64,000 bases of DNA, from sequence record EU863408; one strand, given 5' to 3'. Source of the stretch: Escherichia phage JSE. Positions 4,106 through 33,828 of the stretch are shown here, one piece after another. A program made the translations under genes and the position numbers. The notes beneath the pieces were generated by a model. It searched no databases, had not been told where the DNA came from, and saw only the letters and a program-made list of their open reading frames with translations. The stretch's first letter is position 1. Every line of letters starts with the position of its first letter.

Positions 4106-4133
4106 GGAATCCTTCGGATTCCTTTTTCTTTTT
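4106..4133 (+). terminator. hairpin terminator before gene 24
   Basis: GGAATCC-TTC-GGATTCC followed by T-run. Confidence 0.5.
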
Positions 4134-4134
4134 G

Positions 4135-4142
4135 TATAAATA
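4135..4142 (+). promoter_or_regulatory. T4-type late promoter TATAAATA upstream of gene 24
   Basis: Exact TATAAATA 38 nt before ATG 4180. Confidence 0.55.
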
Positions 4143-4179
4143 TGATATATCCATTAAGGCAAATACAGGATTCATAAAC

Positions 4180-5421
4180 ATGACTCATATTTTTACTGAA
4201 CTGTTGCGGGAATCTACTTCCTCAGTAGCTAACCAGACAGCGCGACCGCAACTATTATCATTAACTCGCGCGGTAAACAACCTGATTTTCTCTGATCTGG
4301 TAGCAATCCAGCCAACGGATCAACCAGTATCTGCATTGTACGGCCTACGTTATCTTAATCGTGATGGTCAGATGACTTTCCGAACTGCTACAACCTACGG
4401 TGGCGCGGCTGGTGATCGCACAGAGATTGAAGAGTTTTCAAAAGAAAAATCTTATGACGAAGGCGCACTGTTCAAATCAGACAATGTTGTATACGAAGTT
4501 GTGACCGCTGGTACAGTCGGTGCAGATGCCGAAACTCCAGAAGCTGCAATCTTTAAAGGCATAATGACAAACAAAATTCGTTTCTATAGCGATTGTGCAT
4601 CGGTAGAATACTTTGAAGATAAAAACACCGAAATTTCGTCTACCTCTATGCAGTTTGATAAATGGCAGGTTAATGTAGGTTCTCGTAAACTGAAAACCTC
4701 ATTCACGACCGAATTGATGCAGGATCTTGAGGCAAGCCAAATCAACTCTGAAAACTCTGTAATTGATCTTCTGGCTACGATCGCTTCAGAAGAGATCAAC
4801 AAAGATATTATTCAGAAGTTGATCACTGTATCATCTCGCTATAAAATTAAAGGGATCACCCCTGACGGCGTACTTTCTCTCGTTAGCGTTCAGGATGCAC
4901 CAGCACAAGCGCGTGAACTTTACCGCTATGCTTGCGAAATGAGCAATCAAATGTTGCGGACTTCCTCCTTTTCTGGTACATACGTTTTGGCGTCTTCTCG
5001 CGTGGTTGGCCTCCTACAATCTACCGGATGGATGGAAGAAACCGACAATGCTCTAAGCGAAGGTCGTCTACGTTGCGGTCTGGAAGTGTACGCAGACACG
5101 ACAGCACCTTTCGATTATATGCTCGTTGGTTGTAAGCACATGATCGGTGATATGGAGAGTGTAGGTTCTCTGTTCTACTCCCCATATACAGAAGCCGACG
5201 GCGCTGGCGCGTATAAGAGTGTAATTGACCCTAATAGCTTCCAGCATCATGTAGCTATTATGAATCGTTATTCACTCTCTGTCAACCCATATACATCAAA
5301 AGTTGATCAGGAAGAACACCAGGTCATCAAGGGTGACGATTGGGGTAAAATGGCTGGACGTTCAGAAATGTCCTACATTTTAGGAATCGAACTGCCACCG
5401 CTTGAGATTGACAACGCTTAA
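4180..5421 (+). CDS. 24: head vertex protein gp24
   Basis: ELLRESTSS start and overall similarity to T4 gp24 and to gp23; TATAAATA at 4135-4142 lies inside the longer track ORF, so start placed at ATG 4180. Confidence 0.9.
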   Translation: MTHIFTELLRESTSSVANQTARPQLLSLTRAVNNLIFSDLVAIQPTDQPVSALYGLRYLNRDGQMTFRTATTYGGAAGDRTEIEEFSKEKSYDEGALFKSDNVVYEVVTAGTVGADAETPEAAIFKGIMTNKIRFYSDCASVEYFEDKNTEISSTSMQFDKWQVNVGSRKLKTSFTTELMQDLEASQINSENSVIDLLATIASEEINKDIIQKLITVSSRYKIKGITPDGVLSLVSVQDAPAQARELYRYACEMSNQMLRTSSFSGTYVLASSRVVGLLQSTGWMEETDNALSEGRLRCGLEVYADTTAPFDYMLVGCKHMIGDMESVGSLFYSPYTEADGAGAYKSVIDPNSFQHHVAIMNRYSLSVNPYTSKVDQEEHQVIKGDDWGKMAGRSEMSYILGIELPPLEIDNA

Positions 5422-6009
5422 CTAAATATCTAACCAAGACAAGTCAGATCCGCCCAAGATTTTTTCGACGGCGGATCTATTTTCTTGATGATATAAGTTA
5501 AAACATGGTATCCCATGTCTACGGGCAACATAAACAGCAATTCTAGTTCCTCCCGAAACGATTCCATTAACTTCTTTCGCCCAGAATATCACACAATCTA
5601 CAGGATCATCAAGTGTCTCACCTAAGACTTGAGCAACATTTCTAGAAAACAGATTTTGCATGTATAACGGTATAGAACGAGGATTATCATAAACGTGTTC
5701 TAATTCATCCATCGCCAGATTTTTTTGTTCTAAGGTTTGCCATGCAATAACATCATGACCGTTATGCTTGTGGTCATAAAACTTCCAATTTGGAATGAAA
5801 ATTTTTCTATAATCTGGATCGTAATACTTCATGAAAGCATTGTCCATACCGTAAGCCCCTCCAGAATGCGCTACAACGCGATTTTCTGACAATACCCTCC
5901 CAATGGTACTAGCCATTATCAAAATGTCGCTAGGCGCTTTTCTAGAGCCTATTAAAGCACATCTACGAAGTGGTTTTACTCCAAATAGATCTTGTAACTG
6001 GTCAAACAT
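5422..6009 (-). CDS. SLOG-fold (DprA/Smf-like Rossmann) domain protein
   Basis: 195 aa; LIGSRKAPSD and VVAHSGGAYGMDNAF resemble the DprA/SLOG nucleotide-binding core; occupies the variable slot after gene 24 where T4 has rnlB. Confidence 0.45.
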   Translation of the reverse strand: MFDQLQDLFGVKPLRRCALIGSRKAPSDILIMASTIGRVLSENRVVAHSGGAYGMDNAFMKYYDPDYRKIFIPNWKFYDHKHNGHDVIAWQTLEQKNLAMDELEHVYDNPRSIPLYMQNLFSRNVAQVLGETLDDPVDCVIFWAKEVNGIVSGGTRIAVYVARRHGIPCFNLYHQENRSAVEKILGGSDLSWLDI

Positions 6010-6161
6010 AATATTTCCTCCATAGAAAGCAATATCATACTACAAGTTAATAACAAATACAAGTATCCGCGTAGCGGAAGCGAGCACAGCGAGCAATAAA
6101 ACACTTCCAGTAATTGATTAATAAATGTTCGAAACAAATTTTTATTATTCTATAAGATAAG

Positions 6162-6340
6162 TCTTCGTTTTGATCATAATTTAATCACACATGTAAAAAC
6201 TACACAAAAGGATATCGCTTCGCGAACTCCTACGGAGTATAACATTTGTGTTACAATATGTAGTGATTAATAATTAACCAAAGATACATTTTCTATGTTC
6301 TAAAGATCTTTCTTCGTTTTGATCATAATTTAATCAAACA
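6162..6340. repeat. direct repeat of a 26 bp unit TCTTCGTTTTGATCATAATTTAATCA (6162-6187 and 6312-6337)
   Basis: Two exact copies about 150 bp apart in a roughly 400 bp AT-rich non-coding region; related sequence in inverted orientation at 56395-56500. Confidence 0.6.
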
Positions 6341-6390
6341 GTATTAATATTGTGCACATGTAAACTAAAATTATGTTAATAACAGATAAC

Positions 6391-6418
6391 AAAAAACGCC
6401 GACCCGAAGGACGGCTAA
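6391..6418 (-). terminator. rho-independent terminator
   Basis: GCCGTCC-TTCG-GGTCGGC hairpin then T-run on minus strand. Confidence 0.55.
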
Positions 6419-6424
6419 TGTTAA

Positions 6425-6908: not shown

Positions 6909-7184
6909 TCAGGACATTGCCCGTTTGAATGCGTCCATTATAACAGTGTTATTTGGCTTGTCAACACGTTTTTGAACTTTATTTTTAAATTTTTTGTTGA
7001 TGTGGTGTTTACGATAAACAACCTTTTCACGGCTGGCGTAAGCCTCGCGTGCATCTTTTACCATCAACCATGCCTTAGCCGCATCTTGTCCGCTGATCCC
7101 GCCAATCTTCTTAGCAATATCAACAAAATTAAGACCGTGGTCTTCGCGTAGCATGTAAACCATTAACGCTGTTTTCTTGTCCAT
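6909..7184 (-). CDS. hypothetical protein, possible helix-turn-helix
   Basis: Start placed at internal ATG that overlaps the upstream stop (ATGA coupling at 7182-7186); track ORF extends to 7292. Confidence 0.45.
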   Translation of the reverse strand: MDKKTALMVYMLREDHGLNFVDIAKKIGGISGQDAAKAWLMVKDAREAYASREKVVYRKHHINKKFKNKVQKRVDKPNNTVIMDAFKRAMS

Positions 7185-7381
7185 CACTTCGCCCCATTGA
7201 CGATTAACAGGATAGTGATCAGTACCGGAAACTGGATCATGACAGTACCAATAAACCGGATAAACGCATTTTCTGACTTCCACACATGACATGCGACTAG
7301 CTGATAGACCATTGTTGCAACCAAAGCCAGAAAATACATCTCGATTGGTGCTTCTTTGATCAATCGTACAATCTCATTCAT
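7184..7381 (-). CDS. small hydrophobic membrane protein
   Basis: 65 aa with predicted transmembrane segments; sigma70-like promoter at 7509-7536 upstream. Confidence 0.45.
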   Translation of the reverse strand: MNEIVRLIKEAPIEMYFLALVATMVYQLVACHVWKSENAFIRFIGTVMIQFPVLITILLIVNGAK

Positions 7382-7582: not shown

Positions 7583-8797
7583 TTAAGCAGGATGCGTTTC
7601 ACGAATGCGTAGAACTCGCTCTAACGTATCTCGGTCCAGTTTATGTAAATCTTTGGAATGATACATGAAACCATTGCGAGATTCCATGCAAGTGCAATCA
7701 CTATATTGTTCTTCCGCTGCCGCGATTGTCTCCAGATCTTTGGCGTACTTGCTGGTTGAATAAACTTCTCGATCACGCCACTCTAACCCAGCCTCATTGA
7801 ATTTAACAATCTCGTCAAATACCCACCATCCAATGTAGATAAATGAAGTTTTGCGCCACGGGATCGGGTGTACGTAACGAAACATTTTAACAACTTCCAT
7901 TGAACATTTTCGGCTTGTACTTGCTGCAACTTCTACTGTTTCATCTTCGATCTGTTGATATAGTTTAGCAACACACCAGAATTTGGCTGTGTCATCGTAA
8001 GTAGCACTCTCTTTGAACAGATGACCGTCTGGCATGATAGAAAATCCTTCCAGTGCTTCGCCGTCCTCACTACCGATTAGAGTCGGTGACAGTTGCCCTT
8101 CGCGCTGCAAATACCAGTTATGTTTGATCGTCAATTCAGGCATACCGCTAGAATCGCCTACAATGTCCTCTGACACAACATAATTAAGTAAGATCTCATT
8201 ACCTAGTGCCACGGTCTTTGATTCCACCACATCCTGTTCTACGTTCATTGTTGCCAGCATGATTTTAGTCGATGCGCTATCGGCTGAATTTTCCGACTCA
8301 CCCCACACTTTTACAGTATACACGCCGTTTTTATCTGCTGTAAATTTTTTGATTGTAGTATTCTGTTTTGTGTCTATAACTTCTTCGCCCTTACTCCAAC
8401 TATAATGTAGTTCATAGTTGTCTGCTGGAGTCTTCCCACCCGAAAAATTTACTGTTGCATGTAATTCTACGTCTTTTTGTGATGATACGTAGAAATGCGG
8501 CGGTTCGGTGATATTTACGATTAATTCCGCTTCTTCCATGAGGAAAACTTCAGATTCTACTGATTCCATCGTATCAGTATCTTGTACCTTGACTTTATAG
8601 CTACCCGCATTTTCACTTGTTGCGCCTTCTACAGTTAGCGTAGCTGTGTTATTTTCATGCTGTTGGTCGTCTTTTGTCCATGTATATGTCAAATTGCTTG
8701 GTAATGGTTCGTCACCCGCTAAAGTCGCCGTTAAGGTGAAACCATCTCCAGCAAGAAAACATCTTTTGTTAGATTGTATTGATACTGTGAAAGCCAT
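7583..8797 (-). CDS. hoc: outer capsid decoration protein Hoc (Ig-like domains)
   Basis: 404 aa; repeated Ig-like segments; C-terminal YVHPIPWRK...GWWVFDEI...ESRNG matches the T4 Hoc capsid-binding domain as I recall it. Confidence 0.85.
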   Translation of the reverse strand: MAFTVSIQSNKRCFLAGDGFTLTATLAGDEPLPSNLTYTWTKDDQQHENNTATLTVEGATSENAGSYKVKVQDTDTMESVESEVFLMEEAELIVNITEPPHFYVSSQKDVELHATVNFSGGKTPADNYELHYSWSKGEEVIDTKQNTTIKKFTADKNGVYTVKVWGESENSADSASTKIMLATMNVEQDVVESKTVALGNEILLNYVVSEDIVGDSSGMPELTIKHNWYLQREGQLSPTLIGSEDGEALEGFSIMPDGHLFKESATYDDTAKFWCVAKLYQQIEDETVEVAASTSRKCSMEVVKMFRYVHPIPWRKTSFIYIGWWVFDEIVKFNEAGLEWRDREVYSTSKYAKDLETIAAAEEQYSDCTCMESRNGFMYHSKDLHKLDRDTLERVLRIRETHPA

Positions 8798-31399: not shown

Positions 31400-31873
31400 T
31401 TACTCCTTATTTTCGCGCTCGTACTTTTCGAAATAAAATTCTACTGGCTGGTCATGAATTGACAGCAAGCCAAAGCGTTTAGCCGCTCGCAATCCCATAT
31501 TGCGCTGAATATACTTCTGGAAGTTCTCGCGTATACACTTACGCCAGTATTCTAAGCCCATACAGCTTTTATAAAGATTGCATTGTACACACGCCGGATT
31601 CATGTTATCAAGTATATCATGTTCCGGTTTATGCATTCCTACGACCTTATACTTCCACGATCCATCATCATTACGGGCAATTCGTCCATTTTCATCATAG
31701 ACTACCTTTGAGCGTCGCAATACTGGTTTGATGTGGTCTGCGTGCCAGCGATCCCCTAGTTCCTCGCCACAATAGGCACAACGTCCACCATATTTCATTT
31801 TCAGGATCTGGCGTTGCTCTTTCTTTGACAATTTTTTAGGTTTAGGGGCTTTCGCCCCTTCATTATCACACAT
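31400..31873 (-). CDS. HNH endonuclease
   Basis: CAYCGEEL ... WHADHIKP ... CVQCN HNH zinc-finger motif; overlaps the ligase 3' end. Confidence 0.65.
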   Translation of the reverse strand: MCDNEGAKAPKPKKLSKKEQRQILKMKYGGRCAYCGEELGDRWHADHIKPVLRRSKVVYDENGRIARNDDGSWKYKVVGMHKPEHDILDNMNPACVQCNLYKSCMGLEYWRKCIRENFQKYIQRNMGLRAAKRFGLLSIHDQPVEFYFEKYERENKE

Positions 31874-33368
31874 CGAATACCTCTTTTACTGTATTTGCAG
31901 TGGTCTTGTCGTAGCGAATACGTTTGATGATTGGGAGAAATAAAGAGAACTCCGGTTCATCTTCTTTACGTGATTTGCTGCGGATATACCCGTTGCATGT
32001 CATCTCAATGACTTTTCCAATCAGGTTATGACGGTCAGCCCATAACATTTCTCGGTCGAGTTCATTTCGACGATCGAACGGAATTACACGTTCAGTACCA
32101 TCATCACCTTTTTCGGTTGTAGTGTCGGTTAATCCCGATCCGGTGTTAGTCATCATTCGTCCGCACGCACTACGGACAGTAAAACCGCCTACCTTATTGG
32201 GGTCTTTACTATGCGGATATACATCAACAATTTCCGCGTCGAAGTCAATCACTTCTTTAAATTTAACCTGATCTTTACTACGGCGATCTTCAAATACACC
32301 ATGTAAATTTTTAAGGATAATACCTTCTAAGCCCATGTTTACATAGCGATGATATACTTCGCGAGCTTCATCTATATTGTTAACTACAGTGTTTTCGATT
32401 ATCTGAACACGAGGATCGTTAAGTTCTTCAACAATCTGTTTTAGTTCTTCGAATCGATCTTTATATTGCTTCGTTGCTTTCTCGTTTCCGTAATACACAT
32501 CACGGTCGATAACATCCCAGACAGTGTAAACAATACATTGGGCTTCTTCTTTTGGAATAGTTCCTTTCAGTGATTTGTTGAGGATACCATTTACGGTCTG
32601 ACGATCTGCAACAACGGATTCTTTTACTGCTTCCGCTACTGGCGTTAATGGCATTTCCTCTTCTTCAAATATCCATGACAGAGTACCATCATAAACGCTT
32701 TCAACGAAGTTCTGCGCTGGTGTTTGCGAAAGGGTAGGCATATATACCAATTCCCCATCTAGAACAATTCCACGGCCTCGTAGACGCTCTAAAACAGCAA
32801 ACAAATCATCCAGCCCCTGATAGGTATTACCTGAACGGGTATAGATTGCTAATGTTTCCCCGTCAATATCAGCCATCCCACGAGCGCCATCGCTTTTAAG
32901 TTGTGCATACGCCGGATACTTGATATTAGCAATAGTCTTATCAGAACATGACGATGCAAGGTGACACGGTTGCTGGGGGATCAGTTTCTTCCATACCTTG
33001 TTTGCAGTGGTAGCTGAACAGCCGCATTCCAGATCACGATTCAGGACCATCATTGCAACTTTAGCATCATCCTCTGACAAGCAAGTCAGAGTATCGGTAA
33101 CTAGCTGTAATGCTGCATTACCAGTTACTTGACGCGTGGCAAGTTTATTTTTAAAGACCTGTAATGCACCGGATAAAGACAATACAGACGAATAACGCGA
33201 TGGTTTATCGTATTTCTTTACGCCAAACGTAACCTGTTTGCAATATGCCAGATAAAAACATTCTTTCAGTGTTTCATTGCTTGCAGATTCTTTCAGGATC
33301 TTTTCTTTCAGCGATGTTTTGTCTGTTGCTGCAAGCTGGTTAATGATATTAAGAATTGACATTTTCAC
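31866..33368 (-). CDS. 30: ATP-dependent DNA ligase gp30
   Basis: 500 aa; colinear with T4 DNA ligase, including a lysine-containing YAQLKSDGAR segment and GIILKN. Confidence 0.95.
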   Translation of the reverse strand: MKMSILNIINQLAATDKTSLKEKILKESASNETLKECFYLAYCKQVTFGVKKYDKPSRYSSVLSLSGALQVFKNKLATRQVTGNAALQLVTDTLTCLSEDDAKVAMMVLNRDLECGCSATTANKVWKKLIPQQPCHLASSCSDKTIANIKYPAYAQLKSDGARGMADIDGETLAIYTRSGNTYQGLDDLFAVLERLRGRGIVLDGELVYMPTLSQTPAQNFVESVYDGTLSWIFEEEEMPLTPVAEAVKESVVADRQTVNGILNKSLKGTIPKEEAQCIVYTVWDVIDRDVYYGNEKATKQYKDRFEELKQIVEELNDPRVQIIENTVVNNIDEAREVYHRYVNMGLEGIILKNLHGVFEDRRSKDQVKFKEVIDFDAEIVDVYPHSKDPNKVGGFTVRSACGRMMTNTGSGLTDTTTEKGDDGTERVIPFDRRNELDREMLWADRHNLIGKVIEMTCNGYIRSKSRKEDEPEFSLFLPIIKRIRYDKTTANTVKEVFDV

Positions 33369-33828
33369 CTCGTTTTGTTAAACGTTCACGAATATCATTG
33401 AGGATACTACAAAATTCCGATTCAGTCAATATAGTCTTTAACGGATCAGTTCCACCTATGCTATGACGTAATTTCTTATTTCCTGTAGCGAGTAATGCTT
33501 TACAAAATTCTGGGTTATTCCGTGCCATCGTAACAAATGCCAGATGTACCAGTCTGTAATAATGCTCACTCATTCGATGAATCGGGCGACCCTGAAAATA
33601 TAACATGTGATTCTCAATCTTTTCAGTTCTTCCGGTTCTTTTTGCTTTGCCACCGTGCATCAAAAAGATTTCTCTTTGTCTCTGAGGGTTCTTAAATCTT
33701 AGCCCCTGTAAAAATCCTTCTGTGCTGTTAATATCGCAACCAAATAGACGGAATGGTCTTTTATTGAAATTACTCAATTCACCCGATGGATAAGGTCCAC
33801 CCGCATAGATATCAATTTCAGAAGTCAT
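33349..33828 (-). CDS. NADAR (YbiA-like) domain protein
   Basis: GELSNF...STEGFLQGLRF and ALLATG..KL.H resemble the E. coli YbiA/NADAR family. Confidence 0.5.
   Translation of the reverse strand: MTSEIDIYAGGPYPSGELSNFNKRPFRLFGCDINSTEGFLQGLRFKNPQRQREIFLMHGGKAKRTGRTEKIENHMLYFQGRPIHRMSEHYYRLVHLAFVTMARNNPEFCKALLATGNKKLRHSIGGTDPLKTILTESEFCSILNDIRERLTKRGENVNS

Follow-up and report, generated by a model that had tools for sequence, protein, structure and literature searches.

A stand-alone DprA-like SLOG protein encoded beside gene 24 in Escherichia phage JSE

Our analysis of a 64,000-nucleotide stretch of DNA from Escherichia phage JSE (EU863408; the whole stretch is called the window below) concerns the gene that converges on gene 24 and that encodes a stand-alone DprA-like SLOG domain which retains the nucleotide pocket of DprA. 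The phage is a Krischvirus, a T-even phage of the RB49 type. A preliminary description of this DNA had placed an open reading frame (ORF) for 195 amino acids at 5422..6009 and had compared its product to the DprA/Smf and SLOG nucleotide-binding superfamily on the strength of two motifs. The ORF does exist, but its strand has to be corrected to minus. Both motifs are present in the protein, LIGSRKAPSD as residues 19-28 (5926..5955) and VVAHSGGAYGMDNAF as residues 45-59 (5833..5877). Our tentative proposal is that the ligand of the protein is single-stranded nucleic acid, or else a nucleotide in such a strand that is damaged or modified, and that the protein would assist repair and joining enzymes as a partner that targets or protects. 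The coordinates of the gene, its motifs and its surroundings are collected in Table 1.

Comparison of the gene with an ortholog of 87% identity, carried by a metagenomic viral contig, gave a ratio of nonsynonymous to synonymous substitutions (dN/dS) of 0.11, and purifying selection acts on the gene. The corresponding proteins of phages RB49 and TB34 are 100% identical to the window protein, and a 5-kb region is matched by 57 records of Krischvirus-type phages at 90-99% DNA identity. Homologs were found by tblastn in 1,353 of 50,697 GenBank phage records, with Klebsiella, Pseudomonas, Escherichia, Aeromonas, Vibrio, Acinetobacter and others as hosts. An exhaustive profile search returned 4,319 clusters (50% identity, E<=1e-3), mostly of stand-alone proteins of 170-200 amino acids; a word-indexed homolog search gave 6 relatives. 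The protein also matches the profile phrog_768 with an E-value of 1.2e-60 and 205 bits, its residues 15-187 being aligned with positions 4-181 of the 191 in the profile. That the ORF is a genuine gene follows from its dN/dS, its identity in RB49 and TB34, the phage records, the phrog_768 match and the clusters, and a chance or spurious ORF was rejected given the low dN/dS and the deep conservation.

A family alignment of 140 relatives underlies the conservation counts, the profile comparison and the Pfam scan that follow. For DprA that binds single-stranded DNA (ssDNA), Wang et al. 2014 (PMC3950713) described a first signature G-S/T/A-R (G50-R52 in HpDprA), in which R52 gates the pocket, and a second signature F/L/Y-x-x-R-N/D (F140-N144), in which R143 and N144 hold the inserted thymine, and they set both against the LOG signature PGGxGTxxE. 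Both DprA signatures are conserved in at least 90% of the phage family. The first, in the loop behind the first core strand, is represented by G21 (139/140), S22 (124/140; S, A or T in 135) and R23 (137/140), the second, in the pocket helix, by L or F at position 120 (128/140), R123 (139/140) and N124 (134/140; N or D in 136), followed by Q127 (135/140) and G130 (128/140), a Q/G extension that is specific to the phage family. [quoted passage not shown] The LOG catalytic motif PGGxGTxxE is absent from the protein. The position of its Glu is taken by Ala158 (within S-G-G-T-R-I-A), with Ala in 133 members, Gly in 5, Ser in 1 and Glu in none.

When the family profile was compared by hhalign with an alignment of five DprA and ShosA Rossmann domains (E. 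coli Smf and PDB rows), it reached a probability of 94.9% and an E-value of 4.5e-8 over 176 columns, which is the whole domain. All four motifs fell into register, namely GIGSR on vGsR, SGGAxGaD on SGlAxGiD, LhaRN on FxrRN and GGT on SGs. With E. coli Smf as the only counterpart, the alignment was confined to the N-terminal half. Matches to curated profiles were below threshold, with 22.3 bits for PF02481 (DprA; cut-off 29.6, residues 15-60 only) and 14.4 bits for the dprA equivalog TIGR00732 (cut-off 191). A sub-threshold DprA match was seen in 98 of the 140 members, 18 matched LDcluster4, and no member matched a LOG (PF03641), YpsA or ThsA-type model of Pfam. We assign the protein to the DprA-like part of SLOG since both DprA signatures are conserved, the four motifs are in register and the LOG motif is absent; membership among LOG-type enzymes was rejected for lack of the catalytic motif. 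The protein is not an orthologous DprA, because it has a single domain, scores below the curated cut-offs and carries the family-specific R-N-V-x-Q-V-L-G helix.

Structure prediction agreed with this placement. A first AlphaFold2 model built from 7 sequences had a predicted local distance difference test score (pLDDT) of 83.8 and a predicted TM-score (pTM) of 0.84, and a second, built from 140 sequences, reached 96.0 and 0.91. In both models all 195 residues form a single Rossmann domain, and Pfam shows no further domain. The fold comparison ranked DprA first (13.0 for 3maj, 12.8 for 4ljk), followed by the MoCo-carrier protein (12.1), TM1055 (11.7), YpsA (11.6), ShosA (11.1), LOG/PpnN (about 10-11) and the ThsA SLOG domain with 3'cADPR (10.0). 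The protein has a three-layer alpha/beta fold and its closest structural neighbours are SLOG proteins, in agreement with the SLOG assignment of the preliminary description. A Foldseek search with a predicted structure, which that description had recommended, was carried out on the PDB with the second model. H. pylori DprA took the top nine places (TM about 0.55), and the fold is for this reason not that of an unrelated Rossmann family. The nearest entries in the viral structure library are phage proteins labelled phi92 gp047 or "DprA-like".

In line with its database name, the protein might be a strict DprA-type recombination mediator that loads phage UvsX or host RecA onto ssDNA. The DprA-like fold and motifs would suit this function, and a survey of jumbo phages (Iyer et al. 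2021) regards phage DprA/Smf as possibly an extra ssDNA-binding protein in recombination. We consider this role improbable, however, as the phage already has a dedicated mediator in UvsY, encoded at a distance of about 6 kb, the equivalog score is far under its cut-off, the surfaces for DprA dimerisation and RecA contact are not demonstrably conserved, and T4 manages without the gene.

Our proposal of a nucleic-acid binder is based on the DprA-type motifs, on fusions of relatives to RecJ and to a DNA-acting NADAR, and on neighbouring ligase and replication genes. The protein represents the DprA branch of SLOG in a minimal form, with one domain only, and it is probably produced early in infection. 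It retains the pocket with which DprA holds one flipped-in base of ssDNA together with its phosphate; the equivalent residues are R23 as the gate, L120, R123, N124 and the G153-G154-T155 loop. This pocket might grip single-stranded nucleic acid by one of its nucleotides, or else a lesion or modified nucleotide in such a strand, and the protein might serve the DNA and RNA repair and joining enzymes of the phage as a partner that targets or protects. Candidate partners would be the NADAR ADP-ribosylglycohydrolase, which is fused to such domains elsewhere, and the neighbouring ligases. A median isoelectric point (pI) of 8.6 in the family was counted in favour of nucleic-acid binding.

The fusions were surveyed among the 150 best relatives. 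NADAR is fused to the DprA-like SLOG domain in five proteins (P0047, P0123, P0154, P0017 and P0019), and the NADARs of three of the five also resemble T4 gp30.3. Three of the fusion proteins are about 325 amino acids long. The other two, of about 1,480 amino acids, combine the DprA-like domain with SLOG domains of the YAcAr and LDcluster4 kinds and with NADAR at the C-terminus, and P0017, the one of the two whose locus was analysed, carries the DprA-like domain twice in tandem. One further relative joins DUF4326 to the DprA-like domain, and another joins it to RecJ (DHH-DHHA1-OB), a single-strand exonuclease. On a metagenomic contig (ctg48878c, locus L019, 8001-12428) a polyvalent protein of 1,475 amino acids with two tandem DprA-like domains, YAcAr, LDcluster4 and a C-terminal NADAR is encoded in a region resembling an integrative and conjugative element, together with ParB, an SNF2-type helicase, HigBA and RadC.

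Both domains that are fused elsewhere, NADAR and the DprA-like SLOG domain, are encoded in the window as separate genes. The phage NADAR gp30.3 (AdfN) has been shown to be a DNA ADP-ribosylglycohydrolase that counters DarTG1 (PMC11257639). From the fusions we infer that the NADAR gene of the window (Table 1) is a candidate functional partner of the SLOG protein. This gene is located directly upstream of the gene 30 DNA ligase (31866-33368, minus strand), and its counterpart in the sister phage MIZ4 is labelled only as hypothetical.

The evidence on genomic neighbourhoods comes from 17 annotated phage loci and a few contig look-ups. The preliminary description had reported synteny with gene 23/24, hoc and inh, which we also observed, and had placed the SLOG gene in a variable slot where T4 carries rnlB. 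The position is correct. The gene did not replace rnlB, since the two stand in tandem in relatives, and the slot is not variable with respect to the DprA-like gene, which is seen at gene 24 in other T4-like genera as well. In five other genera of Straboviridae the genes that converge on gene 24 end with the DprA-like gene, upstream of which rnlB is found, either directly and with overlapping stop and start, as in Jiaodavirus (Mineola, L003), Karamvirus (fGh-Ecl04, L012) and Gelderlandvirus (STML-198, L013), or two genes away, as in Gualtarvirus (MP1, L010) and Muldoonvirus (VP8, L011). The upstream ligases of these five genera were confirmed as Rnl2 by tblastn. Klebsiella phage ER45 (L002), here taken to be a Slopekvirus, has an RNA ligase, an HNH gene and then the DprA-like gene, with Nampt further on and no gene 24 seen. 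With ER45 the pair is present in six T4-like lineages. Two more T4-like contigs resemble RB49 in having the DprA-like gene at the gene 24 slot and no rnlB, and a search of the window and of the initial 150 kb of the Krischvirus MIZ4 genome (165.5 kb) showed no Rnl2 homolog.

Records of T4-type phages with rnlB number 1,442, and T4-type phages evidently lack the DprA-like gene, given that only 176 Escherichia phage records carry it. The interval between hoc and gene 24 ancestrally held both rnlB and the DprA-like gene; T4 lost the latter and the RB49 lineage the former. One loss in each follows from the tandem arrangement in other T4-like genera and from each of the two phages keeping one gene. 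The available text of the survey of viral SLOGs by Iyer et al. does not mention an adjacency to rnlB or to ligases. In vB_EcoM_Skers a 99.5% identical ortholog (MW748999.1, 25264-25848) is labelled 'putative RNA ligase', which is probably a mis-annotation transferred by position from T4 rnlB.

In phages that are not T4-like, most of the neighbouring genes serve replication, ligation and nucleotide metabolism. In the T5-like Demerecviridae My1 (L006, 5046-7463) and Athena (L014, 2180-4973) the DprA-like gene lies between or beside the halves of a split NAD-dependent DNA ligase. Thymidylate synthase and DNA polymerase are neighbours in OLIVR5, a deoxyribonucleotidase and a helicase in a Vibrio jumbo phage, and PhoH in Mydo. 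In LSL4 an ATP-dependent DNA ligase is found four genes upstream. Phosphoribosyl pyrophosphate (PRPP) synthetase and Nampt accompany the gene in Pae01, and in VEcB a Sir2 gene is located about 4 kb away.

Some of these neighbours and fusions can also be read in terms of free nucleotides. The protein might be a small-molecule binder or an N-glycosidase that sequesters or degrades a cyclic ADP-ribose (cADPR) isomer, ADP-ribose (ADPr), nicotinamide mononucleotide or another NAD-derived signal or toxin and in this way blunts NAD- or ADPr-based immunity. This is the idea of the preliminary description and also a prediction published by Iyer, Burroughs, Anantharaman and Aravind in 2022. There, viral SLOGs, most of them of a YpsA-like clade, are reported to be fused with Macro, NADAR and DUF4326, are proposed to sense or degrade ADPr-derived immune signals, and are stated to be experimentally uncharacterised. 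Fusions to NADAR and DUF4326 and the giant proteins in which the domain stands in series with YAcAr and LDcluster4 speak in favour of such a function. The same applies to Nampt and PRPP synthetase near the gene in Pakpunavirus and Slopekvirus, to Sir2 in VEcB, to the NAD-dependent ligase that adjoins it in T5-like phages, and to the invariant Asp and the conserved Arg, Asn, Gln and Thr, which would fit an active site. NADAR partners were earlier interpreted as enzymes of soluble ADPr. The sponge reading of the NADAR fusions is weakened, however, because AdfN acts on DNA-linked ADP-ribose (PMC11257639). The family moreover lacks PGGxGTxxE, with a Glu never found at position 158, has no LOG or YpsA match in Pfam, and is nearer to DprA than to the ThsA SLOG domain in both fold searches. 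The paper on the discovery of the Sequestin and Lockin sponges mentions no SLOG, DprA or Rossmann fold. Taken together, we consider a small-molecule function possible but somewhat doubtful.

Several points weigh against our own proposal that the protein binds nucleic acid. With a pI of 6.4 the window protein is mildly acidic, and we found no experimental, functional or binding study of any family member in the literature. The same pocket is a small-molecule site in other SLOG proteins, so that conservation of the motifs cannot separate a polynucleotide from a mononucleotide ligand, and the invariant polar residue D56, as well as Q127 and T155, would suit an enzyme too. The SAM and C-terminal domains of DprA are missing, K137 of HpDprA is without an equivalent, as is the second Arg in R-N-R, and the TM-score to DprA is only about 0.55. 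Among the neighbours, the NAD-salvage genes Nampt and PRPP synthetase point elsewhere, and the adjacency to rnlB in Straboviridae may be a single ancestral arrangement and would then provide few independent observations.

Another role that we weighed is that of an orphan antitoxin mimic, which would take the place of ShosA or PsyrA, unstable DprA-like antitoxins in phosphoribosyltransferase (PRTase)-toxin defence systems, in the way AdfN does for DarG1. The DprA-like antitoxin ShosA works without any binding to its toxin, T-even phages provide a precedent for orphan antitoxin-like counter-defence (PMC11257639), and PADLOC gave weak matches to PsyrA (E 4.2e-5, 20.8 bits, residues 17-61) and ShosA (E 3.5e-4, 17.9 bits, residues 15-58). 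These matches are not full-length but span about 45 residues at the N-terminus, where the protein also matches canonical DprA through the shared motifs, and the resemblance to ShosA does not exceed that to DprA. The protein also lacks the SAM domain, which ShosA needs for stability, and the extra C-terminal helix, and the family is spread over phages of many hosts and lies in replication modules, a distribution broader than would be expected of a counter to one rare system. We therefore give this role little credence.

The proposed nucleic-acid binding can be extended to a two-part counter-defence, in which the SLOG protein would recognise ssDNA or lesions while AdfN, and perhaps Rnl2 or DNA ligases, would repair ADP-ribosylated or damaged single-stranded nucleic acid of the phage. 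This is conceivable, though rather unlikely. If true, it would define a new functional class, a phage 'ssDNA guardian' with its origin in DprA, the competence protein.

Table 1. Features of the SLOG gene and its surroundings in the window.
Feature	Coordinates	Strand	Remarks
SLOG gene (CDS, 195 amino acids)	5422..6009	minus	stand-alone DprA-like SLOG Rossmann domain (PHROG 768); ATG-initiated ORF
Shine-Dalgarno sequence GGAGG	6017..6021	minus	7 nucleotides 5' of the ATG (6009..6007); read from the sequence
Codons G21-S22-R23, DprA motif 1	5941..5949	minus	in hhalign register; Arg is the 'gate' of the ssDNA pocket
Codons S49-G-G-A-Y-G-M-D56, S-G-G-A-x-G-x-D loop/helix after strand 2	5842..5865	minus	common to DprA (SGxAxGID)
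Codons L120-F-S-R123-N124-V-A-Q127-V-L-G130, DprA motif 2	5620..5652	minus	aligned to DprA FxrRN
Codons G153-G154-T155, Gly-rich loop	5545..5553	minus	DprA S-G-S (HpDprA G164); hhalign register
Gene 24 (capsid vertex protein), convergent neighbour	4180..5421	plus	ORF 4132..5421; start from MIZ4 annotation
gp30.3/AdfN-type NADAR gene	33349..33828	minus	Phage_30_3, 132.5 bits (cut-off 36)
Weak sigma70-like promoter candidate TTGTAT-17 nt-TATGAT	6034..6062	minus	8/12 matches; from the sequence, below scan threshold
Small GC hairpin TCCGC-TAC-GCGGA	6066..6078	minus	just 5' of the -35, PeSL-like arrangement; terminator-like scan

The SLOG gene is probably expressed early, as suggested by a weak but conserved promoter candidate and by a hairpin that has changed on both sides. 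The promoter block is kept in the diverged relative L022 although the flanks diverge, and the hairpin reads TCGGC...GCCGA there; a PeSL arrangement of this type has been described (PMC2839356). We put the timing no higher than probable because the promoter falls below the scan threshold and the folding energy of the hairpin is not better than that of shuffled sequence (z -0.34). At the other end of the gene, its stop (TAG, minus strand) and that of gene 24 (TAA, plus strand) abut at 5419-5424 with zero intergenic bases. As no terminator or spacer lies between the two convergent stops, each transcript would enter the coding region of the other gene.

Upstream of the SLOG gene there is a non-coding spacer of 415 bp (6010-6424, minus strand), which has no Rfam match. 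It holds an exact direct repeat of 26 nucleotides, TGATTAAATTATGATCAAAACGAAGA, at 6162-6187 and 6311-6336, 149 bp apart, where 0 are expected by chance, and each copy opens a tiny ORF of 8-10 codons (MIKTK...). A near-identical relative retains both copies, with one mismatch just upstream in the second, and L022 lacks the region of the first. The gene upstream of the spacer encodes a protein of 145 amino acids with no Pfam match and is directly followed by a terminator-like hairpin with a T-run (GCCGTCC-TTCG-GGTCGGC, 6391-6415, minus strand), which the terminator scan missed because of one T-T mismatch in the stem. Further upstream, the same leftward unit contains genes for a DUF2774 protein (99 bits; 6909-7292, minus strand) and for a Hoc-like Ig-domain head decoration protein (7583-8797, minus strand). 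Several T4-like relatives (L003, L027, L028) also have DUF2774 close to their DprA-like gene.

As a discovery the finding is ordinary, real and rightly classified as it is. The family was already known: it has been catalogued and annotated, was surveyed computationally in 2021-22, and the hypothesis that it counters signals is in print. The window adds no new sequence, since the protein is identical to that of RB49. Our analysis adds evidence at the level of residues for the DprA type, with both motifs of the ssDNA pocket and no LOG motif, as well as the conserved tandem with rnlB, the adjacency to ligases, and NADAR fusions re-read after AdfN. Among those accessory genes of large lytic phages that lack an explanation, the family is one of the commoner, with over 4,000 clusters (50% identity) in metagenomes, and many of the phages that carry it are candidates for therapy against Klebsiella, Pseudomonas, Acinetobacter and E. 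coli. Its ligand, be it single-stranded nucleic acid, ADP-ribosylated DNA or a free immune nucleotide, would assign it either to DNA and RNA repair or to the arms race over NAD and ADP-ribose.

In comparison with known systems, the window protein is a full-length member of PHROG 768, the phi92 gp47-like family named 'DprA-like DNA recombination-mediator protein', and differs from it in nothing of kind. Orthologs in the phages MIZ4, MIZ5, Delraymugoa and Aragogtheria carry the same annotation, sister genomes use "DprA-like" or "YspA SLOG family protein", and the family name is a homology label only. Bacterial DprA/Smf (PF02481; PDB 4ljk, 3maj, 3uqz) is a multidomain protein, whereas the window protein has one domain and neither SAM nor the C-terminal winged-helix/DML1 domain; the R-N-R-I-I of DprA is replaced by R-N-V-x-Q-V-L-G, and a different stretch is inserted between strand 3 and the RN helix. 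ShosA and PsyrA are encoded next to a PRTase toxin gene, while the SLOG gene has gene 24 and the gene for the 145-residue protein as neighbours. The LOG/PpnN 5'-monophosphate N-glycosidases (PF03641) are characterised by PGGxGTxxE, in place of whose Glu the window protein has Ala. The SLOG domain of ThsA, the cADPR sensor of Thoeris, is fused to a SIR2 effector and scores below DprA, and the window protein stands alone. According to the available texts, the anti-signalling hotspot of Pseudomonas Migulavirinae (N4-related) phages involves a sponge related to the ryanodine receptor, and NARP3 consists of PnuC and NadR; neither belongs to this SLOG family. The viral SLOGs of Iyer et al. are proteins of the same kind with the same fusion partners, NADAR and DUF4326, but the family of the window protein scores as DprA-like and not as YpsA-like.

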